From Callorhinchus milii (lineage: Eukaryota), in contig NW_024704742.1 of the NCBI RefSeq assembly GCF_018977255.1, forward strand, positions 56,980,001-57,044,000: a stretch of DNA of 64,000 nt, in the 5' to 3' direction. Every line of letters begins with the position of its first letter. Positions within the stretch are counted from its first letter, which is position 1. This document shows positions 3,050 to 62,938 of the stretch, piece after piece. The notes beneath the pieces are model-generated. The model saw only the letters and a list, made by a program, of their open reading frames with translations, did no database searches and was not told the DNA's origin. Made by a program: the position numbers and the translations under genes.

Positions 3050-3274
3050 CATAACAGTATTTCACAGATCTGTGACATATTGTAAATCATGCAGATTTCA
3101 TCCCTCAGTTTTGTAACAATCTGAAACAAACCATTAATAGCATTTATTGTTCAGTACTGTTCTTCACACACGCTCTAGGGAGATCATAAAAATCATAGAA
3201 TTATACAGCACAGAAGGAGGCCATTTGACCCATTGTCATAACAGTATTTCACAGATCTGTGACATATTGTAAAT
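3050..3274. repeat. Local duplication of 1917-2065 (at 3088-3236) flanked by 38-bp direct repeats
   Basis: 146/149 identity by eye; CATAACAGTATTTCACAGATCTGTGACATATTGTAAAT at 3050-3087 and 3237-3274. Confidence 0.95.
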
Positions 3275-6647: not shown

Positions 6648-6923
6648 CACATCATCTCTGCTGTCAGGGCTGGATTGTAAAGTGCTTTTCTCCTCTTCTT
6701 TTTTAATAAGTCTTTCATACAAGTCGCTTACAAGGAACGATGGGTAATACCGGTCCTTTAGAGTTTCATAAACATCACTTTGAATCTTGTTGAAGACGTC
6801 CGTTCCTTTGTTACCCACGAGGCTTTGCTGAATTTCTTTATAAAGTGCCTTCTCCACAGGAATTTCTCGGCTTTCCACAAAATAATTCTGGTAGATTTCA
6901 CCGACCAGTTGAGGTATTTCGGT
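6648..6923 (-). CDS. SNX25: SNX25 exon, RGS domain (276 nt)
   Basis: gaccctag|ACC GAA ATA...GAT GTG|gtaaga; TEIPQLVGEIYQNYFVESREIPVEKALYKEIQQSLVGNKGTDVFNKIQSDVYETLKDRYYPSFLVSDLYERL...DSRDDV. Confidence 0.95.
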
Positions 6924-7631
6924 CTAGGGTCAGAAGACAAAAATGTTATGCATCAGCAACCGTGTAGCACAGCACACTGTTAGCCTCCTCTGAACTATTT
7001 TCCCATTGCTCTTCTAGCTCACGATTGGAGTGTGGCTCCACAGATGCCATTACCCCCTTCAACAGTAGCTTTCGCACATAGCTATTCTTCACATATGAGC
7101 TAAGACATTGAATAACACCATTTTTGTTGACTGCTTTGAGGGCATCACAATGGATTCTGATCCTTACCCAAGCATTACTTTCTAGATGGGATTAGTTAAC
7201 AGTCAGAGACAAAAACCCTGTCTTATTCTTTCCAACCTTCTTAATCTGTATACGTCGAGTCCAAAAGTTACAAATCTACCATAGTTTGAGAGCTGCTAAA
7301 TCAGCAGAAAACAAGATTCAGACCAGACAGAAAATAAGGAGGCAAGGATGTGGGGGGGGTGGGGGGGGAAAGCGACGTGATAGATCCACTTAATAACAAA
7401 GGATACCTGCAATGTCAGTGAGACATGGGTACAAACCTTTCAAATACATAAGAAAGTGATATACTATTTTTGAACATCCATTCAGAATTTTTAATACAGA
7501 AGGCTTGTGACAAATCTATGGTTTCTGGGGTATAAATAGCACCTCAGAAACCACAGATTTGTCTCTTTAATAAAAAAACTCATAAGATCAGAGCTATGAA
7601 TTGATTCACTGAAGCCAACATATCATTTTAC

Positions 7632-7763: not shown

Positions 7764-9194
7764 CTGCAGTAGAACACATTACACAAGATCAATCAGCAAC
7801 TTATTACAACTCATACAATACAAAACTACATTACGTCCCAAGGCACTGGATAGTCAGAGATTTGGATCTGAGCAAGGGGTGGGGGGGTGTCAGGGGGGTC
7901 AGGGAGGGTGGAGGGCGGAGGGCAGTGAGGATAGTATATTGTATCAATGATAATCCTTGCATTTGATATAGCGCCTTTTCACGTCTTTGAGGCGTCTCAA
8001 ATACTGTAAAGTGGGCAAAACATACTGGGCGAAATGTGGCAGCCAATAGCGCACAGCAGTGTTCCACAAACAATCGTGGATTGAGTGACCAAATTATTTT
8101 TTTTTTTGAAAGAATTATTACCCCCGGAAAAGCGATCCACCAATCAACTAACAAACGGGTTACTACTGTGAATGCGCCCCTGAATATTTTTTTCTACAGC
8201 AAAGATATACATGCCAGTCCATTTCTATTCTCAACAAAAAATGGCCCATTTAGTAGTGCTCTCATCTATAGGTCAGGAGGCTATGGGCTCACACTCCAGT
8301 TCAGTGCTGATGGTGCACTGTGAGATGCATCACCTTTTGGATGAGAGATTAAACTGGGGTCATGTCAGTACAATACTGAAGGATAATTATGTTGTCTGAT
8401 GGCCATCCTTCAGAAAGATGTTAACCCAGGGTCCCATTTACCATTATAGGTAGATGTTAAAAGCACCGTTGCATTGTTTGAAAAGAGAAGGGTGTCTGAT
8501 TCGGCTAACAAAAATTTCACATAAAATTGGTCAATCACTACCCGGGTGATAATGGAAGTTCCTGGTGCATAAACTGGCACCTCCAACAATACAGCATGCC
8601 TTCAAATACAGCCACTACCATCTGTGTAGAACTTAGAGATTTTTTTTAAAGTTATAAGCACTTTATCTACTGCAAGGATTATTATTAATATCTCCTCTAG
8701 TTTAAACCGATAGACTGTACCGCATTTCAATCTGCTTAGAAATACTATACTACAATGAAAGACCAATTTTCACATTAATTTGATTGCTTGTTTAGTTAGT
8801 GGCAGTCTCCTAACCGGGTCAGAGGTCATGGATTCAAGCCCAGCCTAAAGATTTGAAGTCAAATTTCAGGCTGACACACCAATATAGTACTGGGGAGTGC
8901 TATATTGTTGGAGGTGCTATCTTTTGAATGACAAATTAAAGGTACAATCTGTCTAGTTCATGCAGACGTTAAAGATCGCAAGACTTTATCCCATGCCTCA
9001 GATTTTTCTCATTCTATGGGCCTACAATCCTACAGGGAAATCAGTCATTCATCTCATGGCCGTTTGTGGGTCCTTACTCGCGCAAATGCCTCCCGCATTT
9101 GTAGGAAGTGAAACTAAACAGATCATGTTTTTTCAAAGAGTCGAGACTTCTGTGCTGAAAATTCTAAGAGTCAAAATTGTTAGTAATTGTTTAT

Positions 9195-13295: not shown

Positions 13296-15037
13296 GCAAT
13301 TCAATGAACATATGAACAGTTTTCAAGCGTTAATGGACCATTGGACCTTATTCCCAATCTCCAGGTTGACACTGTCCACAACTTTTACAGGACTTTAAGT
13401 CTGCAAAATGTTTATGTCTCTGATTTATTTTAGTTATATATGAAGTGTAAATAAACGTGCACAAGTCGCAACAGTCGGGACCATAACATTTAATACAATG
13501 CACGTCAAATAAGAGTTATGCATTAAGTTTACCTCGTAGAATTGGAGAATCCGGTACCTTTCCTGTTAGGTCTTTGTGACTATCTTGCATTTATTGTTTG
13601 GGGGCATGATGACGGGTAACAAGTGAACGATTCATTGACTGCATTGACTACACAATGCTCCTGTGATGCATCTCACGTGACCAGAGGTGCAAGTTAAAAC
13701 ATGACAAACTCAAAGAAATGCACCACCACATACGAAGGGGACTGACAACACAATAGGAAAAAACACTTAATTCAATTGATAATTTGATCCCTGACAGGGA
13801 AGTCAAAAATATTAAATAGAAAAATAAATCCTGGCATATGATCAGCACTTTTAAAATAAGAGTATTGTCATTTTATCAGAAAAATATTCTGCGCTCACGA
13901 TAAAGTAGTATCTCTAGACATGACCTCATTTACTGAGCTGTAGTGTTTCAAACATAGAAGTGTTTCATCAACGCAGCCAGTAGATGAGCTTGTGGTGATA
14001 GGAGATAATTTTCATTAGGATTTACATTACTTGGGATCAAAAAATCATTATGACTTAGTCATGTATCCGATTTGTAAAATTCAACTAGTGCAAAGAATTC
14101 AAAGTAATTTTTAGTAGAAAACTGAATGGGGCTTAGGTGCATGTACAACTTAGGCAAGTGCACTATTTATAATGAGATGATTTATACAAGTTCATTTATG
14201 TTGGTGTGTGACTTTGCTGTGTGCAAAATAACTGCTGTGTTTGCCTTCAACATTCACAGACACTTCACTTAATAGCAATTACTTGTGAAACCTTTGGGTC
14301 CATTTCTTGCTGAAAAATTATATATTAGTGATAAATATAATTCTTAATAGATTCCACCAATACATCTTTATTTCGACTTCCTTTCTGAAACCTTCTTATA
14401 GTTCCTTCTTCCACCACCTGTGCTGGTAGTTCGTTTCATGTGCCAAGAAATTATTTTAGTAAGAAATAATGTTATTTCAAAATTATTTTACAAAAATAAT
14501 TTCCTGTACATAACAACCAAATTACATTTGTGTAGCACCTTTCACGTCGGGAGGATGTCCCAAGGCACTTTCTATTCACTCTTGTTGTCCTTATTTTAAT
14601 GCTCCTCATTTGAGTTTTCCACAAAATAGAAAACCTTACCTGCATCCAAATTCTCTAAAGCCATTAATTTTAAACATGGGCTCTCAAGAAACTTCCTTTT
14701 CTTTTCAAGTAGTACCATGAGATCTTTAACATACATTTGAGCAAGCAGACGGGATCTCACTTTTATGTCTTGTTCAAAAAGCAGCACCTAAAAACAATGC
14801 AATGTACCACTGGATTGGAGTGTCAGCCTAGACTATGTAGATTCAAGTCCCGACATGGGTTTTCAACCCACAACCTTCTGACTCAGAAGTCTATCACTTA
14901 TCCTCTGAAGCTCTTTTGACGCAACCATCCAAAGTGAAAGGTGCTACATGAAATGCAAGGAATACAAGGATTAGTGTATTCCAACTAAGCACTCAGTGCT
15001 TACAGAAGAATTTTTCAGGTCTTCCCATAACAGGCAG

Positions 15038-15351
15038 AATAATAATAATAATCCTTGCATTTGATATAGCGCTTTTCACGTCGGGAGGACGTCCCAAAGC
15101 GCTTCACAGAACACACTGTAAAGTGAATTGACTGTATATTTGTGGGCGAACGCGGCAGCCAATTGCGCACAGCAATGTCCCACAAACAGTCGTAGATTGA
15201 AAATGACCAATTTATTATTGTTTTGGGTTTTGGAGGGATTATTATTAGGCGTGTGGAGTAAGGAAACTTGCCCAAGGTTTCGCCCTGCCTGGAATTGAAC
15301 TCAGGTCTCTCACTTGCAAAGCGAGTGCTCTAACCACTGAGCTACAGTCCC
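15038..15351 (-). mobile_element. Full-length young tRNA-derived SINE with Deu-like core and L2-like tail
   Basis: Head GGGACTGTAGCTCAGTGGTTAGAGCACTCGCTTTGCAAG...GAGTTCAATTCC (A and B boxes); core CTGTTTGTGGGACATTGCTGTGCGCAATTGGCTGCCGCG; (TTA)n tail. Confidence 0.92.
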
Positions 15352-25562: not shown

Positions 25563-28500
25563 CTGTTTTTTTGTTTAAAAAAGAGAGAAATTGAAATTTT
25601 ATTATTGATTATTACCCTAACAGTGAGTACTGTACAAATTTTATTTCCATGCAACTGTAACGTCGGGGCATTCAATTCTCAACTGGGTCACCAACATCCA
25701 TTTCCCTGTCTCCGTGACGTACTTGCATGCCTCCAGGCAGCATGTTGCACACTCTCGATGGGTCAAGGGATGGGGGAAAACTGTCTGGTACTGTTTAAGG
25801 GTGTGGAATGATTGACCAAGGAATGGCACTGATGCAGACTAAGGAGACTGGATTGCCTCAAATCACGGGATAGCACAAATGCTGGGAGGTGAAGGTAGAC
25901 AGAGTAAAACAACAGCAATAAAATGAAAGATACTATTCCAGTCAAGAAGGTCATATGAGGCAACTCAAAACATTCCAAAGATCAAGTGAGATTAAAATCA
26001 CTCTTACACATCACCGCACCAACCAAGCACCTCAAAATCAACTTCTAATTCACAGCACAAAGGAAGGAAAATACTTTGCCTACTAAAAGCGGCCAACTGA
26101 AGCAGGAATAATAAATACATTAAAGTATTTACAGCACTAACATAACTGAAAGTATCATTGCTTGGATTAAATTCTATAAAGGTTTGCATAGGATTTATTT
26201 CTTGAGCTATTTTTCACATTTCTTTCACCTGCACAGATTGGAAATCCTCTATTATTCAGGACTGTCTCTAGGAAGGAGCTGAGGTGACGTGATCGATCAC
26301 CTGAACATTTCTGGAGCAAACATTGTATCGTCTGCAAATAAACAGCTCAGTGAAGACTTGCTATCAATTTGTGAGCCTTCCTGGAGGATCTCTGAATGTT
26401 CTTAAATTTATTCAAGAAAGTTATTTTGGGATTAATCTGCTATAGTTCTTGAAGGGATTCCATATTAAAGAATACGTTTAGAATTTATGACAGACCTATG
26501 GAACTAGAAGGTGATCTGGATTTCCCATGGGTCAATGTGACATGCAGTACTGTCCTTTAACAGAAGGAGCCTCCGTTTACTGCAGCGAGGATTCCCTATT
26601 TACAATCCTGTTTAAATGAATAAAACAGTAATAATCTTTGCATTTGGTATAGCACCTTTCAGGTAGGGAGGACATCTGAAAGTCCTTCACAGGATTTACT
26701 GTGAAGTGACTGTATTTGTAGGTGAACAAGGCACACCAATGTCCCACAAACAGCTACGAAACAAATACCCAATTTACTTTTGTGGGATTATTGGCCAGGA
26801 AACCGGAAGAATCACTTTTCTCTTTTCAAGGAATGCCATGGGATCTTTAACTTCCACCTGAAAAGGCAGATGGAACCTCAGTTTAATATCTCATCTGAAG
26901 AACAAGATCTCCGGCAATGCAGCAGGATAGCAGTGAAGTGTCAGCCTAGATAGACTGCGTCAGTTCACGTCCCAACATGGGGCTTACGATTGAGTGGTGA
27001 GAGTACTATGAACTGAGCCAGACTGACAACTACTTTGTAGGCTCTGAAATAATAAAAAATAGCCCCTATTCATTGTCAAAATAGACTACACCAGGTAATT
27101 AACAGATTATCTTAGAAGCACAGTCTCTCTGCCACCTCAGAAACATCTCTCCCAAAAGATATCTGGACAACCATTTGCTACTAGGAAAAAATTGTTCTGT
27201 TATTTGCATCAAGCATATAATCTTTGCATTTTTATAATCCTAGCATTTCATATAGTACCTTATCATGTAGTCCAGGTGCTCAAAGCTCTTCATAGGATTT
27301 CACTATGAAGTGTAGTGACTGTGTATTTGAAAGCAAAAGCAAAATCCGATTTACACACAACGAACATTCATGGTGAATGACCAATATTATCTGCCTATAC
27401 AACACAGTCATAACACTTCACAGTAAATTTGTAAAGCACTTCGAGACCTCCTCCCAAAATGAAAAGTGCTACATCAAATGCAAGGATTACATAATAAAAA
27501 TTGGTAACTGATGTTATTGCTCCACTAACCACCGGAATTAAATAGACCACATTCAGAAAGTGTACCATTGCTCATTCAGTACAGGAAATTCAAAGGTTAT
27601 AAATTCAATGACAAATTGGTTTTGCAACATGAAGTGTTCTAGGGGAAATGAGTCTGTATAGCAAAGCATAGCCAGAATATTACAGCAATACTGAGAAAAA
27701 AACAAAATGAGGTCTGCTTATCTTTCCAAACTAATCATTTGGTTGAAAGAATTGTAATTTTGGAAACAGCAGATGGCTACAATGCAAATGGTATTCTCCC
27801 CTCCCCTGCCCAGTTAGCATATTTATCACTACAACAGACACGAAAACCATCTGCAGCTTTGCAGCGCAATCAAAGGTGCATGGTTTGAATGTTTTATCAT
27901 CTTGGCTTTTCACTGACAGCAGCAGAGATATGAAGCCATTACTTATTAAATGAACCAGAAGAAATGAGTTGAATAATATCTTTATTTTATAATGGGACCG
28001 GGATGTGCATGTTAACAGTGAAAGTGTGTGTGTATGTGTGTGTGTGGTTATATGTACATTATAAAAAATAATAAATAATCCTTGCATTTGATATAGCACC
28101 TTATTACATCATTGAAATATCTCAAAGTGCTTCACAGGATATACTGTAAAGTGGATTGACTTTTTGATTTTGTGGGCGAAACGCAGCAGCCAATTGCACA
28201 CAACAATGTCCCTCAAACAGCTATGGAGTGAATGACCAATTACATCGACAAGCGAGACTTCAGCTGCGACCAAGGCATCATGAGAATCAAAGTCTTGTGT
28301 ATGGCGTGACATACAAGAGGCTCACAGAAAATACAGTTCATGGGGCACTTTTTTGCAGTGGTTCTGCCAATCAAAAAGCTATTTCAACCCCACTAGCAGC
28401 ATTAACTTGTACAATCCATTCCCATTATAAGTAGAGAAAGACAGTCGATTATAAAAACATCCAATCACTGAATCTTGTCACACTGTGTCACTCAGTGCAC

Positions 28501-29032
28501 CTGCATCACACCACATTTTGTGAGCGTTTCTGTGTGGTTGGGGGTGTAACACTGTTTAGAAAAGGTTTATTGAAATGCTATTTTGTTAGGTGCTTGCTGG
28601 TTTATTTTCCTTGTTATAATTGATCGGAAAATAGATGTATTTTGGCAGCCTGCAGGAAGCAGATCTGTTTTTTTCAGGAGTTTTTTCAGGACTCAGATGT
28701 CCATGGCTGTTGTTTTTAACCATGACTAATCCAGGATTTGCCAAACAATTTGCCACAACAAATAAATAATACAAGCCTATTGACCATGCATTTGTGAAAT
28801 TAACTCAGACCCTGTTGGTACATAATGTTGCCGTACAATTATTTAAACCAACTTCATTGAGCGAGTAGTAAACATATGGAACAGGCTCTCTGAGTTGACT
28901 GTGGAAGCGGAAATATTGATTTTTTTCAAGAACGAATTATATGGATTTCTGTTGGGAAATAATATTTTGGGATACATATATAGTTTGGGACACAACGTAT
29001 CATGCAACTGCCAGGATGGTGGAAGACAAACT

Positions 29033-29985
29033 GAATGGACTTTGGTCTTCTTTCGCCTAGCAATTCTTATGTTCTTAACTCAACTGCTTCAATAGACTAG
29101 GCTCGAGATTGATGCTGCTAACATGTTTACAATTTTCAGTCACACGGTTACCAAGGAAAAGGCACAGATTACAATTCAGCTCCGGCACCTCAGCCTTCAG
29201 CTGATCGAAAGGGTATTTAAATAGATGCACGAGGCAAGGAGCATTCCTTTCACTTATGCACTGACATTGTATAGAAATTTCATGGATGATAATGACAAAG
29301 AGAAACAACACATGGAATAATAGGTGACCGGCAGCAAGTTCAAGGCATTAACTCTATCAGGCGTTTGTAACAACGGGCTGCAAGCGCGCAGCTTGAGGAG
29401 CTTATGAACGTCAGCACAAGTGTATCTAATTGAATTACTGCTTCAAGCTCCTGCTGGTTATCGTTTGTCCTTCAGTCCAGAGTTAATTTTATTTTTTGTT
29501 TTAAAAAAATTAAACTTATTGTTTAACTGTTGGGCTGCCAGCAGGTCCGCAGAAACTCTCGTCTCAGTGCGCCAAACATTTCTGCCTATTTCTCAGCATA
29601 TGGTGGCATTAAAAATGTTTACAGAAATAAAAGCTATTCATAAGGTTATCGTTGTTACTGTAATAATAAATACAAGCCAACAAAAGTGCCTTATCATGGC
29701 CTTATCATGCACTGAGCAATTTAAAATAAAATATCTTGAACTTTCTTCAATGCAGTGCTTCATTTTTCCCCCTTTCTCTTTCTCTATTTTAAAGCATTTT
29801 CCGATTAGCTACAGTCTGAAGGTTGAAGTGTTGCAGCTGAATTGTAATCTGTATTTTCCATGGTAACTGTTTAAGTAAAAATCATAAACATATTAGTGGC
29901 AACAGGCTGAGCTAGAATTTAGGAATGCAACTTAGTTAGGAACATAGCCTTATTACTTTTTCACACTTTTTTTTAAAGTCAATTC
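29033..29985. repeat. Long diverged inverted repeat (palindrome) centred near 29500
   Basis: Perfect 18-bp core ACAGATTACAATTCAGCT (29164-29181) against its reverse complement (29835-29852), within arms 29068-29224 and 29784-29946, plus further symmetric blocks. Confidence 0.85.
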
Positions 29986-32172
29986 TAACTTTTTGTTTTA
30001 TTTCTAACTTTCAAAGGTCTCACTTGACTTTCTTGTAGCTGAAATCAACCATTTAGAAGGAGCAAGTTGGTCAAAAACTTGCTTCCATTGCTCTAATCGG
30101 GGTTGTTAGTCGATTGGCAGGTCGCTTTTCCGGTGGTAATAATCACTCCCAAAATAATAATAATTTGGCCACTCAATCAACGGCTTTGATGGATTTTTCC
30201 ATGAGCCTCTGTAAATCTATTATGTTGAACATGTGCTCAGGTACGTAAAGATAGAGAGATGGCAGGTCCTAATTGAAAACCAGAGAGTCAAATTTGAATA
30301 TATACAGCAGCGCAGATAAAGACCGTTTCACGTTATACAATGATTCCTTTATTGTAGAGATGTGGGGTTGGAAGTTTCTTCTTCATTGACTTGAGTTAAT
30401 CTGACATGTCGATTTCGAGTACCAAAAGATTCTTTCAACAACATCTATCCGATCATCTGATAACCTGAAATCCTTTTCATTTCCAGGAACTTGTCCACTT
30501 ATATTTTTAACCCCCTTGTCGTTCTTTACTCCTGGTTACTAAACAAAAAAAATCTCAGGCACCTTGCTATTCTTGAATATTGAATCCATGAACCCTCCCC
30601 ATATTTCTACCCAGGAGAAAAGGTGATCGTCGTCCTTCAGAATTTTAAGTATTTCAATCAGGTCTGCCCCTCGGGCTTTTCTTTCAAGAGAAAATAAGGA
30701 CTAGGCCAGCCAACTTTTCTTTGATCAGTCAGGTATCTCACGTACACCGAATGCCATCACCATGCTTATAATTACTCAAACCACAGAGTTCACATATATA
30801 TGCCGAGAGCAATGCAACCACCCTTCTGTCAAATCTTGTAAGCTTACATTTCTCTTTACTAATTTGCATCTGCCACCTTTCCACCCACATATCCAGCTTT
30901 TCCATATCCCTCTGAGTTTGTGCTCATGATAGATAGATCACATGGAGATGAGCAAGGACTTTCACTTTCGAATGATGTCCAATTGATTTAAGGGAAAATA
31001 GCATTGCTAATGAAAGTAGTAACATTACTGGTGTGTGGACAAATATTTCCTGATGCAACTTTCAGCGGTGAATTCCTTGTAGTTCACAGCAACTTGTAAG
31101 ACTCCAGCCACCAATGAGTCCTTGAGTCAGATCCAAGGCATCACATTATGAGTGACATACCAACAAATTCCCTACTGAATTGTAGTTTACATTAGCTTTT
31201 TCAGGCACCAGTATTATTGCTGCCTTCATCAATGTAATTTTTTAAGCACAAAGCACCCTCCAGTGGGGTGCAGCGAGGAGAAATCTTGATCCTAAACTTA
31301 CTATTAAGTGGGGCACAGTCTGTCTGACCAGAACACTAACTAGCTAAAAGCGCTCAATAGGTTATTATGCTAGTATCCCAACAGAATTAGTGCGGAATAC
31401 AATTGACGGAGTGAAATTGTGCTGATTCATCCTAAGCCCATTGTGTTACAAGATTAGTTGACATCGTGAAGGGAGATGTCTCAGGACTTAAAACAGGAGA
31501 GGAGGGCCTTGAAATGGGTCTTGAAGGTGGCAAAAGGCCCACCTGCCAATGGTGGGGCGGGCGAGGTCACGGAGCCTGGTGCAGGAGAGGACACGTGCTG
31601 CAGAGTTCTGGATGCTCTGCAGCCTATGGAGGGAGGAGTTGGTGAGGCCAACAAGCAAGGAGTTTGCATGTCAAGCCTGGATGTAATAATGAACAGGATT
31701 TTACATGGGCAAATCATTCATAAAATCTTAGCATATTTTACAATGTTTGTAGAATATGAACATGCTTACTAAGTACATATAGCTCTCAGAGAGCAGGGAT
31801 GTGCAGTTTATTTCGTAAAACTTTGTTGGTGGAGTAGACTAGCAAAATGAGAAACTGGTCTTTTATCACAACATTTTGCAATGTTTGTGCTGCATGGTTT
31901 ACAGAAGGAGACGTAGTCTTTCTCTCACTGCCATGAGTGCTGGCATCAGACACCTCATCACCACACTTGCTCCAGAAGCTATTAGGAGTTCAAAACTAAT
32001 AGGCTGCTGATTTAGTGCAAAAATTTAGTGAAAATTATTTCAATTCCAACTCAAACATCAACTTGAAACAAAACACCAGACTCTTCAGAGAAACAAGCTC
32101 CAGAAAGCAATCCCTCTAACTTCAAACAGAGCATTCGCTTTTAATCTTGATTCATTGTCAAGTCCCCTCTCT

Positions 32173-34110
32173 ACAACAACAAGATTCCATTTATAGAGCG
32201 CCTTTCACGTCCCAAGGCGCTGTACAGTTGGGTCAGGACAGGAGCAGGGGGGAAATGGTCAGGGTGAGGGGAGGGAAGGGAAGGAGCGAGGAGGGGGTAG
32301 AGAGTCGAGAGGGGAGCTGAAGGAACGGTCAAAGAGAAAGGTTTTGAGGCCGGCCTTGAAGGAGGAAAGGGAGGAGGCGGCGAAGGCACTGGGGGATAAA
32401 GTTCCAGAGCCTCGGGGCTGAGAGGCTGAAGGCCCGGCCACCGATGGTAGGGCGGGGGATGTGGAGCAGACCGGAGCCAGAGGAACGGAGGGTACGGGCA
32501 GGTAGGTAGGGGGATAGTAGGTCGGAGAGGTAGGAGGGAGCAAGGCCGTGAATGGCCTTGTAGGTGAGGATGAGGATCTTGAATTCAATCCTCTGGGGGA
32601 TGGGGAGCCAGTGGAGGCGAGCGAGGGTGGGAGTGATGTGGTCCTGGTGCGGGACAGTACACGAGCTGCAGAGTTCTGAATGACCTGCAGCTTGTGGAGG
32701 GAGGTGCCGGGAAGGCCGGCGAGGAGAGAGTTCCCATAGTCCAGCCTTGAGGTGACAAAGGCGTGAACCAGAGTTTCAGCAGCGTGAGGGGTGAGGTAGT
32801 GCCGTAGTCTGGCGATATTCCGGAGGTGATGGAAGGCGGTGCCAGTTGTGGCGCGGATATGAGGGAGAAAGGACAGCTCAGGGTCGAACAGAACACCGAG
32901 GTTCCTGACCGGCTTTGAGAGGTGGAGAGTGCAGCCTTGGATGCTGATGGTGTCAGCGCCTGAGGTGCGGAGGCGCTGACGTGAGCCAATCAGGAGGGCC
33001 TCAGTTTTGCGCACGTTGAGCTGAAGAAAGTTGTTTCTCGTCCAGGACTCGATGTCGGACAGGCAGCTGTCAGGACATCGGTGGTCGTGGAGTTGAGGGT
33101 AGAGGAGGAAAGGTAGAGTTGGGTGTCATCCGCATACATGTGGAAGTTAACCCCATGTCTGCGGATGATGTCACCGAGGGGGAGCATATAGAGGGTGAAG
33201 AGGAGGGGACCGAGGACAGAGCCTTGAGGGACACCGCACGAGACAGTGCGGGGGCTGGAGGAAAAGCCGTTTGTGGAAACAAAATGAAGACGGTGGGAGA
33301 GGTACGACCTAAACCACTCAAGGACAGGGCCTTGAAGGTTTAGGTGGGAGGACAAGCGGTGGAGGAGGATAGCGTGGTCGACCGTATCGAATGCTGCCGA
33401 TAGGTCGAGGAGGACGAGGAGGCAGAGGGAGCCCTGGTCACAGATGGTCAGGATGTCATTGGTGACCTTGACCAGGGCAGTTTCTGTGCTATGGGCAGCA
33501 CGGAAACCCGACTGAAGGGGTTCGAATAATGAATGGGTGGAGAGGAAAGAGCGCAGCTGGGAGGCAACAACTCGTTCCAGGACCTTGGACAGGAAGGGGA
33601 GGTTGGAGATGGGCCGGTAGCTTGATAGCTGCGACGCATCAAGGGAGGGTTTTTTCAAGGTGGGAGTGATGGTGGCAGTTTTTAAGGGAATGGGAACAGA
33701 GCCAGAGGAGAGGGACAGGTTGACGATGTCTGTGATATGTGATATGTGGGGCAAGGAGGTGGAGCTGAGAGATAAGGAGTGGAGTGGGGATGGGGTCAAG
33801 GGAGCAGGTGGTGGGTTTCAGGGATAGGATGAGTTTGGTGTCAGAGGGTGGGGAAACGGGTACGAACGTGTGTAGGGGAGGATGGGTAGGAGTCGGAGTG
33901 TGGGAGGGAGTGGGTGGGGTGTGGGTGGATGTTGGAGGGGAAGTGACCGCGGAGCGAATTCCCTTGATTTTGGATTCAGGGAAATCCAGCATCTCCTCGC
34001 AGTTAAGGTTGGAGGAGATGACCTGCGCGGGGTGGCTGGGGGGACGGAGGAGTCAGGATGTGGTAGAAAACAGTAGCCTGGGGTTGTTCTTCGCCTCCAG
34101 GATTATCCTC
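32173..34110 (-). mobile_element. Young 5'-truncated L2-clade LINE (~1.9 kb, RT region to 3' tail)
   Basis: [49 protein letters not shown] and YADDTQLY motifs; (TTG)n tail. Confidence 0.96.
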
Positions 34111-34554
34111 TAAGGGCCTGCAGACTCCTTCAATCTCCTTGCATTCATCAGAGCTCAGCAAACCTAAGTCAGAATTTTGATTACTGCATATCCTGGAGGA
34201 ATCTGATGGTAAATCAGATCTTTAATTACAACAGCACCATATTAACATTCGGAGAACAGGTTCACCTATAAATACTCACACTTGTTAAACAGATATCTGT
34301 CACACAAGGGCAACGGGCTAATCAGAATACACGCACGTAATATCCTTAAAATGACTTTCAGACGACAGAAGAAGATTAAACACAGTTTATGGAACGGGTA
34401 ACTGGGGAAAATAAAATAGCTTTGGTTTTCTTCTTGTGATAATCCATACTCATTAGAGTATGGATTATTAGAGTTGTTTTCTAACTTTTATTCACAGGAC
34501 TATATAAGAAATCGGAAGCAGAAAAGGAAGATAATTCCCCTTCCAGACCTGCTG

Positions 34555-34918
34555 TATTGTTCAAATCCTTTCACTCCCTGGCATCTTCCTACCTCTCCAA
34601 CCTCCTCAATCCCCAATCCACCACCCAGCGCCTCCGCTTGATTGGTACCGGCCTCCTGCTCATCCCTCGCACTCCCGCCCCACCATCAGAGGTCGCGCTT
34701 TCAGCCATTAATGCCTTGAAACTCTGGAACACTCTCCCTCAATCCCTCCGCCTTGCCCCCTCTCTCCCCTTTTCCAAGTTCTGCCTGAAAACCTTCCTCT
34801 TTGACCGTGCCTACGGCCATCTTCCCCCCGGCTTGGAGTCAGGCTCTGCCACTGTTAAGCGCTCTGAGACGCTATCCTGCATGGAGGGCACTATATAAGT
34901 GCAAGCTGTTCTTGTTGC
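34555..34918 (+). mobile_element. L2 3' end fragment
   Basis: KLWNTLPQSLRLAPSLPFSKFCLKTFLFDRAYG; tail present. Confidence 0.9.
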
Positions 34919-35604
34919 TCACAAAAAGGGAGGTGTGAAAACATCTCACTCACTCCCAAACATCCAGCGTTCGGCTTTGAAGGTAGTCAATTGTATTTTT
35001 CTCTTTCTCAGAGTTAGACAAATTGCATCGAATCGTTTCCCACCAGATTTAAGATGAACTTAATACCACTAAAACCAATGAAACAAACTTACTTTCCACC
35101 CACCATGGATTCTAAATACAGTGCTCCCATTTAACATAATAATACATACATTTGATATAGCGATTATCATGTCTTCAAGCCGTCTCAAAGCGTTTCACAG
35201 AATATACTGTGAAGTGATTTGACTAATATTTTGTGGGCGAATATAGCAAAACATACAGATTATACGAGGAGGGAGTATCCACCTAACGCATGAGAAGGTA
35301 GTGGTATATTACTTTAATTGTTGAATAATGATTACAACAGTAATAACCCTTAAATTTGATATAGCACGTTATCATTCTCACAAACATCTCGAAGCACTGA
35401 ACAGGGTCTTACTCTAAAGACCAATGACTGTATTTGTTGGCAAATAATTAACTAGTAGCTGTGTTTAGGCATCAAAGTATTGTAATGCTATCAGAGAAAT
35501 GATTATTCACTGAGGTCTATTATTTGTGTAAAGAAGCTTGTATTCTGGTCTTGCATTACTATATGTACACAGACAGAATTTTACAGATTTGCCTAATTTT
35601 GCAA

Positions 35605-35993
35605 TTGTAATAATAATACAATAAGTCTTGCATTTTATATAGCGCTTTCATGTTGGGAAGATGTTTCAAAGGATATACACTGAAGTGTAGTGATTGCATT
35701 TTGTAGGCAAACATGACAGCCACTTTATGCACAGCAATGTCCCACAAACAGCCATGACCAATTTTTTAAATTCCCTTCTCTTTTTGAATGGTGCCATATC
35801 CGATCGAACAGGTGAATGGGATTTTGGTTTAACATTTCATCCTAAGAATGGCACCTCCAACAATACAACACTCCCCCAGCACTGCACTGAAGTGTCAGCC
35901 TAGATTACGTGAATTCAAAGTCCCAATATGAAGCTTGAACCCACAACCTTTTGACTCAAAGGTAAGAGTGACACCAACTGAGCCAGGCTGACA
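35605..35993 (-). mobile_element. Older DeuSINE (SacSINE1-like), near full length
   Basis: TGTCAGCCTGGCTCAGTTGGT...GGTTGTGGGTTCAAG...AGGCTGACACTTCAGTGCAGTGCTG head. Relatives at ~5895-6295, ~8790-9100, ~16730-17140, ~20295-20618, ~26627-27027, ~47024-47311, ~61630-62040 and ~63650-63930. Confidence 0.8.
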
Positions 35994-37764
35994 CACAGCT
36001 GACAACCAGTGAACAGTTGTCATTCACTGGTTAGTGAGATGAGCTTTATGCTGACTCATGTAAGCTCTGTCCCAAAAGCTAATTGGGTCAGAGCAAAGTG
36101 TTCCCAGGAGGATTCTGTATTTATATAAACCCGTTTCAAATATCAAGACTTCAGCCTGAAAAATTCCTAAATTTTATAATCAATATGTAACTGTAGGAGT
36201 GTTTCTTCTTTCTCTCTGCACCCCTTCTTTCCAACTGCACACGCAAATCATTTCTCAACAAAAAGCAATACAATGTACATTTAACATCAGCTAGTTCATT
36301 TTTGAAAACTATATAAAGAATGTAACCAAACATTTTTAAAGCACAAATGTGTTTCCTCTGAATAAATTGTGCACTGATTCAGGGCAAGCAGTGTGTGCGT
36401 TGTAGTTCGATCGGAACAGTCTTCTCATCTCTGCTCATGTTTCATTAAAACCATGAGCTGCATTAATAAAACAGCCAGGATTACAGATGCCTTCTCACCC
36501 AAACCACTACCTCGGATAATCCACAAATCCCTCAGCGACAAATCCGTCCAGAGTTCTGACAAACCATTGCTCATCTGCTTGGTTTTCTGTACTAAACAGA
36601 GGCCTCAAAACTCAGCCCATCTGCACATTCAGAAGTGTTTCCTGAATTGTGGACTGAATTCTATACATTAAAAATTCTTATCAGAGGAGATCGGTTTCTC
36701 ACTCAGCAGTCCTGACAATATCTTGCTTCAGTGTACGAAATCAATTCTGGAAAACAGAGACTCATGTGTTTAGATCTGATAAATCCTTTCACTGGGGTGG
36801 ATTTTACCATGAAACTAATTTTCTTGTGTGAGTTGCTGCTAATGAAATAAGGAAGAGAAAAAAAAGAGCAAAAATCAATTTGCAACAAAAATTTCCATTA
36901 AGTTTCAAACAACCGGTTGTTTGGCCATACAGTCAAGGCTTGGCAACCTCAGGGCTACAAAGAGGATAAAATTCAAGAAGAATATGCAGAATAAAATCTT
37001 GGAATTTTTAACAATATCCACACTGCCTCTTGAACACCACTGATACTGCAGTGAATCCCCAGTAGAGAATAAGAATAACATAAGCACCCGACATCCGTGA
37101 TTCCTGCAGTCACCACTGTACACAGCTCCTCAGGATACTGCAATCTGATAGTTCTCACACAGTGAAAACTCACAATCCAAATACCACTGCTGATTTCAGC
37201 CTTCACTGAGGTTGTGGCTTCAGACCTGTAATTCTCCCACAGCAAGTTCCTGTTCTTCGCAGAGCCATTGGAAAACGGAGGCTTTCTTTTCTTTTCCCCA
37301 CCCCATCACCCTCCTCCTAGCCTTCACTGAGGTCTGAATACACCTGCAATGTGGACTACTGCCGCTTTCACATCCAAAACACAATTTACTCTTCAATCTC
37401 ACACCCATCAATACAGCGAAACTTAGATCAGCAACAACATTTCAAGTTTTCTGTGTAATTTCTAATTTTACATCCAAATATCTTCCATTAATTTCCCCAC
37501 ATTTAAAAGACGAATTTAACACAATTCCTCACTTGCATTTTGGTTGGGGTGGGATTAAGATTTAAACTGTGATAATTAATTTCCTTCGAAACAACAGGTA
37601 TGAAGCCACAATCTGTGGCCCAGTGTTTCCATATCCCTCTGCACAATGTCTCCATACATCTCCACTCTACACAACCAAATTTACTGTATGTTCCTCCCCA
37701 GTCGTCCTGTGCATCACAAAAGTACCACCTATAAAAAACACACACCTTAAAAGGGTTGCCAATC

Positions 37765-38155
37765 CCTTTGAAATCCCTCCACGGCCTTGCCCCACCCTAC
37801 CTCCATGACTTCCTACAAAGCCTACCAACCCAGCCACATCCCTTCGCTCAACAAACCCTGGCCTGCTTCACGTCCACCGCTCTATCCACCCAACCATTGG
37901 TGGGTGAGCTATCAGCCATTCTGCCTCTCTTTGGAACTCCATCTGGACATGGTTCTTGTGACTAGTCCTCTCAATCCCCACGTGCAAAGTCTGCCTCAAT
38001 TTATTTCTTTGCCTGCGCTTTCGGTCACTTTTCCCCACCTACCGTCTTTAGCTGCGACCCACCCACGCACTGGCTCGGGTACCTACGTAACAATGTGAAG
38101 CACTATGAGACACCCTCCTGAAGTGGAGCTCTACATAAATGTAAATTGTGTTGTA
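37765..38155 (+). mobile_element. Old L2 3' fragment abutting an SNX25 donor site
   Basis: KSLHGLAPPYL...; tail GCTCTACATAAATGTAAATTGTGTTG. Confidence 0.75.
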
Positions 38156-38159
38156 TTAC

Positions 38160-57894: not shown

Positions 57895-59084
57895 TAACAA
57901 CAACAACAACAACATTCCATTTATAGAGGGCCTTTCACGTCGGGAGGACGTCCCAAGGCGCTGTACAGTTGGGTCAGGACCCGAGCAGAGGGGAAATGGT
58001 CAGGGTGAGGGGAGGGAACGGGAGGAGGCGAGGAGGGGGTAGAGAGTCGAGAGGGGAGCTGAAGGCACGGTCAAAGAGAAAGGTCTTGAGACCGGCCTTG
58101 AAGGAGGAAAGGGAGGAGGCGGTGAAGGCACTGGGGGATGGAGTTCCAGAGCCTCGGGGCTGAGAGGCTGAAGGCCCGACCACCGATGGTAGGGCGGTTG
58201 GGGCGGGGGATGTGGAGCAGACCGGAGCCAGAGGAACGGAGGGTACAGGCAGGTAAGTAGGGGGATAGTAGGTCGGAGAGGTAAGAGGGAGCGAGGCCGT
58301 GAATGGCCTGTAGACGAGGATCTTGAATTCAATCCTCTGGGGGATGGGGAGCCAGTGGAGGCGAGCGAGGGTGGGAGTGATGTGGTCCTGGTGCGGGACA
58401 GTACACGAGCTGCAGAGTTCTGAATGACCTGCAGCTTGTGGAGGGAGGTGCCGGGAAGGCCGGCGAGGAGAGAGTTCCCAAAGTCCAGCCTTGAGGTGAT
58501 AAAGGCGTGGACCAGAGTTTCAGCAGCGTGAGGGGTGAGGTAGTGCCGTAGTCTGGCGATGTTTTGGAGGTGATGGAAGGCAGTGCCAGTTGTGGTGCGG
58601 ATAAGAGGAAGAAAGGACAGCTCAGGGTCGAACAGAACCCCGAGGTTCCTGACCGGCTTTGAGAGGTGGAGAGTGCAGCCTTGGATACTGATGCTGTCAG
58701 CGCCTGAGGTGCGGAGGCGCTGACGTGAGCCAATCAGGAGGGCCTCAGTTTTGCGCACGTTGAGCTGAAGAAAGTTGTCTCTCGTCCAGGACTCGATGTC
58801 GGACAGGGAGCTGTCAGGACATCGGTGGTCGTGGAGTTGAGGGTAGAGGAGGAAAAGTAGAGTTGGGTGTCATCCGTATACATGTGGAAGTTAACCCCAT
58901 GTCTGCGGATGATGTCACCAAGGGGGAGCATATAGAGGGTGAAGAGGAGGGGACCGAGGACAGAGCCTTGAGGGACACCGCACGAGACAGTGCGGGGGGT
59001 GGAGGAAAAGCTGTTTGTGGAAACAAAATGAAGACGGTGGGAGAGGTACAACCTAAACCACTCAAGGACAGGGCCTTGAAGGTT
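57895..59084 (-). mobile_element. Young 5'-truncated L2-clade LINE, same subfamily
   Basis: [13 protein letters not shown] and YTDDTQLY; near-identical to the two copies above. Confidence 0.96.
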
Positions 59085-60478: not shown

Positions 60479-60790
60479 GGGTGTCCTGTAGCTCAGTGGT
60501 TAGAGCACTCGCCCCGCAAACTAGAAACCTGGGTCGATTTCTGGTAGGACGAAACCTTGGGCAAGTTTCCTTACATCATATGCCTGATAATAATCCCTCA
60601 AGAAAAAAAACAATGATAAAATTGGTCACTTCAATCTATGACTGTTTGTGGGACACTGCTGTACGCAATTGGCTGCCGCGTTTTGCCCACAAATATACCG
60701 TCAATTCACTTTACAGTATTTTCTGTGAAGCGTTTTGAGACATGAAGACGTGAAAAGCGCTATATCAAATGCAAGGATTATTATTATTGT
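60479..60790 (+). mobile_element. Full-length young tRNA/Deu SINE
   Basis: TGTAGCTCAGTGGTTAGAGCACTCGC head; same core and tail as 15038-15351. Confidence 0.9.
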
Positions 60791-62938
60791 TCCCATTTCT
60801 GGCTAACCATAAAATGAATTTAAATGACTGCTCCAGTCCAAACAGTTCACCTTCACTGAATTGTAGTCTATTGTGTGAATTCTCCTTTGGTGCGACTATT
60901 ATTATTATTATGATTATTATTATTAAGGCCAATACCTTATAATTCAACATGCAGAATTTTATAAAATGTATAAAGTGAAAGCCGTTTTTCTGCAGTTGTT
61001 AAAAAGAAAAGCAGCTTCCAAATTAAAGACTGCAGTTGGGAATTTGCAAAAATTCTACATGATCTTACATTTTTATTGTGACAAATATTTTTTTCAGGAG
61101 GCATTTTGGACAGATGTGTCAAGAAGATATGAGTTGCTTGCAAACATCCTGCTCTAATCTGCAAGACTAGCTCTGCCAACTCCCACCAGATACTTTTCTC
61201 AATAAGGCAGTTTCCTTTAAACTTTACAATGAAAGGCTTGGGACCTGCAATGAGAACTATCCAAGCGATTTAGTTTTCCTCTCAGAGCCAGGACACTGAG
61301 GAATCTTTATTTTTCATCTGAATTCTTCCCATTAGAGACGTACGTTAATATATCAGCCAAGAAATAAACAAGACACCCTTGTTTCAGTAGCATTTGGCCC
61401 ATATCTGCAAATTAACATCTTCAGACCATTTGACAATGGAAACTGGCTCATTTATATTCAGAACAGCTAATATTAAAAGCTGCAGGATCCATCCATCATC
61501 ATCACATGCCAAAATAGGATTCAGGCTATCTGGGTAATAAACCCAGAGAGTGAAGTTCCTACAATCTGTACAGACACAAGAATCTCTTAGTTGTACTGTA
61601 GTACGTTTCTAGAACTGTACTGCATTGTTGGAAGTGCCATCTTCATTAGGATAATAATGCTTGCCTATCAAATCAGGACGGCACCTTAAAGTGGTTCACC
61701 GAATTCACTGTACAGTGTAATGATTGTTTATTTAACTCCATAGACAAGCAATGTCCGACATACAGCCAAGAAGTGAATAACTGAATGTTATTAGGGGATT
61801 GCTGACCAAAAGATTGGGCGAAACTCCCTTCTTTTTTTAAATAACACCGTGGGATCTTTAAAATCTACTTGAACAGGAAGACAGGTTCTCGGTTGAATGT
61901 CTCATCCGAAGAACAGCACCTCCAGCAATCAGTGCTCACCCATCACTGCACTGAAATGTCAGCCTATACTTATGAGTGCAGTCCCAAAATGGGGCTTAAA
62001 CACACAACTTTAGGACTCAGAGGCAAGAATGCAAACTGAGCTTTGGATGAGAAGATAAAATGAGGTTCCACCTGCCTGTTTTGGTAAAGATGCCAGAACA
62101 TAATTCTAAAAGAGAAGGGAGTTTGTCTCAGTGTGGTTATCTTTCAAGACTGCTTGTGGCCATCATAATTTATGTTCTACAAATTCACAATGACTACATT
62201 TGACAGCAGTTACCTGTGTAGCTCTCTGCAATGTTTTAACTGTCATGGGGGCTATATCAAATGCAATATTGTTATTATAGCTATTAAAATACAAACATGA
62301 AAATGCATGGAGATAGAAAGACCACTCCTTCTACTTGCCATGTGAACACATAGCCTATTGTGCATTCCAACTTCCTGGTAGTTGTTTGGTATCAGTAACA
62401 TTCCAAAACTGAGGCTTATTTCCCCCTGTCAGAATGCTTAGGCTAATTATATCACCTCAGCTACTTCTCTGCTGAGAACTCAGCATAGAGTCAGATCTGA
62501 ACCTGCAAATTCCAATGTGTACTCCAATTGCTGCAACCTTATCTCAGCTTGCAACAATTGGGGTACAATTGGGCTCAGCTTGTCCAACTCAGAGTGGGGA
62601 GGGAAGGAAGGGGGGAAACAAAGGACAAGAATGAATGAAGCTATTTTAATTTACAGGACCAGAAAAGGTCACTGTCGTCTTTCTGACCGGTTTTAAAAGT
62701 AAACTTTATTTTTCTTAAATGGTCCTACACTTGTCGCTCTCTCATACTCCTCAGTTGAATTATTCACAAAACAGCAACCGCCGTCCTCTGAATTACAGAG
62801 GTCTGGTCACTTGTCCTATGTCTCTCAGCAATGAACAAGAAAATGATTTTAAACGAGACAGGCAATAAATCACTTCAGTATTATATCATCAATATGTTCT
62901 TTTGTCACCTAGCTCTATAACATCAGTAGAGTTTAGAG

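Follow-up and report, generated by a model that had tools for sequence, protein, structure and literature searches.

An intron of SNX25 in Callorhinchus milii holds a real but heavily decayed palindrome of about 880 bp (29068–29949). We tentatively read it as what is left of a non-autonomous DNA transposon of MITE or foldback type, palindromic, present in one or few copies and with a PIF/Harbinger-like end. Inverted duplication of local DNA is a close rival of this reading. No description of the palindrome was found in the open-access literature. Positions are those of the window, by which we mean the whole stretch of 64,000 nucleotides that was analysed. The features are listed in Table 1.

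Table 1. Features of the palindrome and its surroundings (window positions)
Feature	Position	Strand	Remarks
Host intron of SNX25	25563..38159	-	12,597 bp; probably intron 4, a numbering that presumes that the first 120 SNX25 residues (absent from the window) form a single exon
5′-truncated 3′ end of very high-copy LINE	28851..29077	+	Read depth, translation
Left outer arm (alignable part)	29068..29292	+	First 10 bases common to the LINE tail
90-residue stop-free frame	29078–29347	-	Pfam Nairovirus_Gn, 18.7 bits (cut-off 26.5), E 9e-4
Perfect 18-bp core, left half	29164..29181	+	Partner 29835–29852
Inner region	29293..29701	.	Four exact colinear 8–9-mer pairs, unequal spacers
Right outer arm	29702..29946	-	In inverted orientation to the left arm (reverse complement)
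Perfect 18-bp core, right half	29835..29852	-	Partner 29164–29181
Candidate right terminus	29934..29952	-	...CATAGCC to 29949, then TTA 29950–29952

Location and extent of the palindrome

Comparison of 122 SNX25 proteins with the window by tblastn located nine coding exons, all of them minus-strand and none within the palindrome. The peptide of the exon at 6923–6648 (minus strand) is 100% identical to SNX25 of Callorhinchus milii. The preliminary description had placed the palindrome in an SNX25 intron, and these matches confirm both the gene and the intronic placement. The intron acceptor is 3.5 kb and the intron donor 8.2 kb away. A hidden exon within the palindrome was considered and rejected, the lone tblastn match with the same 122 proteins (bin 28800) having an E of 0.87. 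Elsewhere in the window, a recent direct duplication of 151 bases (1915–2065 and 3086–3236; 98%) carries the acceptor and exon start at 1952 over to 3123, a possible decoy exon start. It is bordered by a 38-base direct repeat (3050–3087 and 3237–3274).

The core arms of the palindrome (29068–29200 and 29816–29946) are 74% identical over 135 columns (E 3e-13), and softer scoring lengthened them to 29068–29282 and 29737–29946 (68% over 225 columns, E 4e-19). Aligned with 29946–29753, the stretch 29068–29263 matches at 141 columns and mismatches at 40, with gaps in another 28. The arms thus mismatch at ~22% of positions (~11% per arm), with transitions about as frequent as transversions. All 14 motifs that were checked, from six previously noted block pairs and both halves of the 18-bp core, were found in place (14/14). 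The extent of ~950 bp given earlier was too long. Its outermost pair (29033/29975) is a chance match, as 291 of 1,000 shuffles scored equally high, and the left half of that pair sits within the 3′ end of a high-copy LINE. Repeated subterminal motifs were not clearly seen in the palindrome. A 13-base motif (29147–29159 and 29855–29867) is common to the two arms and has no other occurrence in the window; we take it to bear a loose and weak resemblance to an RFX site.

A high-copy LINE overlaps the left tip

Contigs of four public runs (X1, X5, X7 and X11) were aligned to 28245–30098 at 80% likeness. From X1, 3,246 records aligned. Their summed depth was 11.5–13 outside bins 28803–29112 (with one flank bin at 26) and reached up to 44,564 within these bins, where loose ends occurred at 28851 and 29077. 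No contig of X11, which is from organism B, aligned anywhere on 28245–30098, the high-copy LINE stretch included, and this run is uninformative. The LINE ends in a short tandem tail and has no second copy in the window. It could not be named by Pfam, by word search or by Atlas; from its C-terminal ORF2-type peptide and its tail repeat we take it to be CR1-like. With CR1-type 3′ fragments it shares the 5′ truncation, the very high copy number, the tandem tail and the ORF2-like C-terminal peptide, and it is a separate element outside the palindrome. The elephant shark genome is dominated by CR1, L2 and SINEs (PMC5381603). The preliminary description had stated that no SINE or LINE had inserted. 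The flat depth over 29113–30098 bears this out for that part; the left edge, however, carries the LINE.

The LINE tail and the left arm share 10 bases, the last of the former and the first of the latter, and the tip of the right arm matches 9 of these 10. CR1 and L2 elements show microhomology between 3′ tail and target. PMC4760211 deals with 5′ junctions. Upstream of the LINE, homology to the palindrome was not significant under any of three scorings (P 0.26–0.36). Compared with the majority of its relatives, the LINE copy has a different letter at no fewer than 15 of 227 sites (~7%, a lower bound), among the 40 matches listed (10 more stand outside the count) and with only pieces more than 80% alike counted. 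As this is less than the ~11% per arm, the LINE is weakly placed after the palindrome.

The overlap also bears on the close rival, which we regard as quite possible, namely that ~440 bp of unique intron DNA was copied backwards with almost no spacer in a local fold-back (template-switch) event. Inverted duplication of unique DNA by template switching or fold-back (ODIRA type) is a known mechanism. The copy possibly ends in the tail of a pre-existing LINE and would have been neutral since, its centre eroded by indels. A fold-back origin directly explains the 9/10 match between right arm tip and LINE tail. It is at odds with the LINE copy being somewhat less diverged than each arm and, if the LINE came second, with the absence of homology past it.

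Inner blocks and probable uneven decay

The centre of the palindrome is near 29498, and a loop is almost absent. The exact colinear pairs of the inner region are 29367/29658, 29401/29644, 29450/29545 and 29483/29513. This four-block chain was matched by 4 of 20,000 dinucleotide shuffles and by none of 6,280 other window centres. The result varied with word size: among 3,140 other centres, none matched the chain at k=8, whereas k=7 gave 48 such centres, k=6 gave 127 and k=9 gave 637, so k=8 is the most favourable size for this test. When the inner part was aligned locally in the ordinary way, the score was not significant (70 of 500 shuffles were as good). With cheap long gaps, only 2 of 500 shuffles beat the score, and the resulting alignment consists of short blocks separated by gaps of 13–31 bases. 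The four spacers tested inside 29293 aligned no better than shuffles (P 0.47–0.99). Judged from these alignments, homology of the inner blocks is likely rather than certain.

When uniform decay of a palindrome was simulated, four exact islands together with such poor overall alignment were obtained in 0 of 500 runs in each of five settings. A further simulation of uniform decay yielded the same pattern in 0 of 600 runs in each of six settings. We conclude that decay was uneven, the centre having decayed in another manner than the outer arms. This would be compatible with selection on the islands or with extra indels near the palindrome centre; palindrome centres are unstable and prone to indels.

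Selection would mean that the palindrome is now conserved regulatory sequence, a duplicated enhancer or exapted transposon with motifs in both arms under purifying selection and with SNX25 or a neighbour as target, HELT having been suggested earlier as a possible one. We hold this to be unlikely; the argument for it is essentially the island pattern, with exact islands between unalignable spacers that uniform decay does not reproduce. It is also in keeping with the restriction of the 13-bp motif to the two arms, with the lack of high-copy repeats in 29113–30098 (30% of the window is self-repetitive) and with Xenopus MITEs that can become enhancers (PMC12676858). However, the significance of the islands changes with word size, the indels of the long-gap alignment explain much of their pattern, and the window has many other repeat-free stretches as long as this one. 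Moreover, X1 shows two substitutions and one insertion within the palindrome and no difference in 620 bases of left flank, numbers that are very small.

A candidate terminus at the right end

From outside to inside, the sequence at this edge of the palindrome is TAA followed by GGCTATGTTCC, the boundary lying 3 bases beyond the last aligned base. By its letters, this is a possible PIF/Harbinger-type terminus with a 3-bp target duplication, on one side only. The pattern TWAGGC occurs at 33 of 128,000 window sites and a longer pattern at 2 sites, the terminal motif having been noticed after the fact. We presume that the first bases of the right end resemble vertebrate Harbinger ends. The target duplication TTA/TAA characterises Harbinger/Tourist elements (PMC3014272 and PMC5172404). 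A published table of vertebrate Harbinger ends like this terminus was not found, and the texts of PMC9392472, PMC4122938 and PMC2836001, taken apart from their supplements, offered no TIR sequence for comparison. On the left, the arms are inverted up to 29068/29946, and the flank has been replaced by the LINE, which overlaps the tip; no match to the last 3 bases was present upstream of it. The earlier statement that the palindrome has no clear TIR or TSD is therefore to be revised for the right side, where a candidate terminus is flanked by TTA. Fold-back duplications, like the palindrome, are single-copy with head-to-head arms and a tiny loop, but they predict no transposon-like end with TWA, of which the palindrome has a candidate. 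A fold-back origin would leave to chance that TAA followed by GGC (33/128,000 sites) stands exactly at the arm end.

The Xenopus MITEs Harbinger-N12A_XT and Kolobok-N2_XT have palindromic interiors (PMC12676858). With Harbinger-N12A_XT, as described there, the palindrome shares the non-coding, imperfect full-length palindromic structure, the GG start and TWA beside the right end. It differs in length (880 versus 342 bp), in having no copies at 80% likeness and in having one visible end; Harbinger-N12A_XT begins with GGGC (PMC12676858), versus GGC-TA here. The likeness to Harbinger families is one of layout and end motif. Eulor and UCON repeats have a palindromic shape. According to PMC5753468 and PMC9004415, members such as Eulor12_CM, Eulor12B_CM and UCON84 are, like the palindrome, old, degenerate, non-coding and probably transposon-derived; UCON84 is a Harbinger-derived ancient vertebrate relic (PMC9004415). 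What defines such repeats is the presence of several copies with conservation across vertebrates, and the palindrome is likened to them by general character alone. In PMC5753468, the words palindrom, hairpin and inverted repeat occur 0 times.

A more far-reaching proposal is that the palindrome is Harbinger-derived and of gnathostome age, was exapted as a mirror-image double enhancer and is conserved at SNX25 in cartilaginous fishes and perhaps bony vertebrates. We consider this improbable. If true, a Harbinger-derived element survives in a lineage reported to be without detectable Harbingers, and the motif islands of the arms are under selection. In PMC9179366, Harbingers went undetected in the elephant shark in a survey of copies longer than 80 nt with more than 80% identity.

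Copy number and age

Over 29113–30098, X1, a run of whole-genome size, contained a single contig at a flat depth of 11.5 (80% likeness), and the 64-kb window had no further copy of the palindrome. The preliminary description had named a high-copy lineage-specific MITE as an outcome that would speak against it; X1 contained no further copies at 80% likeness. As X1 and the window have no other copy at least 80% alike, which is the reach of the search, a young high-copy MITE is excluded. The palindrome had also been called ancient. An age beyond that of ordinary repeats was not borne out, as 51 of 120 window repeat pairs are equally or more diverged than the arms (alignments of at least 120 bp; median identity 75.4%, with 51 at or below 74.1%). 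The elephant shark genome is rich in old degenerate elements (PMC5381603). The single copy at 80% likeness and an arm divergence within the ordinary repeat-pair range fit a fold-back origin, as do three smaller self-palindromes in low-copy DNA of the window.

Ten of the 24 public runs listed contain the stretch; all ten carry one organism label, and neither an RNA run nor another species is listed among them. This search detects near-identical DNA only (a run must contain 1/20 of the words), extends to a part of the public runs and says little on conservation. A metagenome scan with the two-arm pattern gave 0 matches and had low power. With the 18-mer core there were 15 matches, and at 15/15 loci the match did not extend beyond chance (best E 0.005).

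The window also contains other inverted and repeated sequences. The self-palindromes at 7509–7563, 14430–14520 and 62491–62593 are small, decayed and 69–80% self-complementary, and lie in low-copy DNA; that at 7509–7563 is ~60 bases downstream, on the sense strand, of the exon at 7766–7626. A low-copy inverted repeat (14205–14349 and 15040–15184) is 65% identical over 148 columns, its arms ~700 bases apart. At 27230–27494, 1.6 kb from the palindrome, head-to-head SINE-like fragments form a 265-base inverted repeat. Young LINE copies with reverse-transcriptase frames (32173–33340 and 57903–59084) are 94% identical over 1,189 bases, and tRNA-derived SINE heads are found at 15280–15351 and 60482–60552.

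RNA folding and coding capacity

The whole region folded better than shuffled sequence on both strands (z -7.4 on plus and -6.3 on minus; 0 of 20 shuffles as good on each), as any inverted repeat would. In the predicted ensemble of the SNX25 sense strand, three outer anchors pair with probabilities of 0.94, 1.0 and 0.75 and five inner anchors with probabilities of 0.0–0.01, the inner blocks staying within 0.0–0.03. The inner region alone has a z of -0.5 on this strand. The preliminary description had proposed a long dsRNA in the pre-mRNA; the outer stem of ~200 bp is upheld by these predictions and the pairing of the inner blocks is not. As modelled, the outer arms can form an imperfect pre-mRNA stem of ~200 bp as a by-product of the palindrome.

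That this structure is itself selected, for A-to-I editing or for splicing control of SNX25, is very improbable. The pairing of the outer anchors (0.75–1.0) and the sense-strand z of -6.3 would be expected of such a structure. Against it, the inner blocks are predicted to be unpaired, and among the 40 arm mismatches G-U is balanced between sense (11) and antisense (10), the remaining 19 being transversions. The arm mismatches, free of strand G-U bias, are as for neutral DNA drift. The loop contains no exon and no strict splice-like site, the splice sites of the intron are kilobases off (3.5 and 8.2 kb), and Rfam yielded no match in the region (best E 1.6). Contigs of X5 and X7, which cover the left arm only (29030–29367 and 29030–29445), were identical to the window over their 338 and 416 bases. 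Both runs are from one study and were guessed to be RNA, and their contigs, which drop rare variants, are silent on transcription and editing.

We scanned 8 of the 18 listed stop-free frames, and none reached the Pfam cut-off. For the Nairovirus_Gn match of the 90-residue frame (Table 1), none of 86 control frames had an E as low as 0.001, and a single one came to 0.01. This frame matched nothing in PDB or by word search, and 0 of 47 viral contigs were confirmed. The longest left-arm frame had 0 matches when compared by phmmer with 1.84 billion proteins. We rejected a viral glycoprotein relic in the left arm as a cysteine-rich chance match, which is sub-threshold and was followed by four further blank searches. 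A 152-aa frame (29408–29866, plus strand) had no match in Pfam or Atlas.

Origin of the palindrome

Taken together, an old palindromic transposon stays the best origin; the preliminary description had offered one, in exapted form, as one of two possibilities. Several findings argue for it. The palindrome spans the whole length with almost no loop, which is the layout of Harbinger-N12A_XT and Kolobok-N2_XT (PMC12676858); the arm homology stops 3 bases before TAA followed by GGC, a rare motif in the window; and no coding relic was found by Pfam or phmmer. The weak placing of the LINE after the palindrome, the old degenerate elements of the elephant shark genome and Harbinger relics such as UCON84 point the same way. 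On the other side, a second copy is absent from the window and, at 80% likeness, from X1, and there is one terminus with one putative target triplet only, its motif noticed after the fact and unlike the GGGC start of Harbinger-N12A_XT. Furthermore, the survey of PMC9179366 saw no Harbingers in the elephant shark, 880 bp exceeds the palindromic MITEs compared (342 and 496 bp; PMC12676858), and the simulations require uneven decay. The transposon reading needs a LINE strike on the left tip, and sister copies that are few or too old.

Under the transposon reading, a full-length palindromic MITE or foldback element would have entered the intron of SNX25, with TWA as its target. The arms would then have diverged by ordinary point mutation, as suggested by ~22% mismatch free of strand bias, and larger indels, which the long-gap alignment displays, would have fragmented the centre. 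Later, a CR1-like LINE may have entered the left tip by way of the 9/10-base match to its own tail. Its insertion would have deleted or masked the left end, with which it overlaps. Most likely, the palindrome is without function today.

As it stands, the finding means little beyond one decayed inverted repeat more in a genome that evolves slowly. Sister copies, if found, would reveal that a chimaera has an old family of palindromic MITEs, in a lineage in which the survey saw no Harbingers (PMC9179366). If the palindrome were also conserved, its two arms would provide an internal control that separates constraint on DNA motifs from constraint on RNA pairing at one locus.
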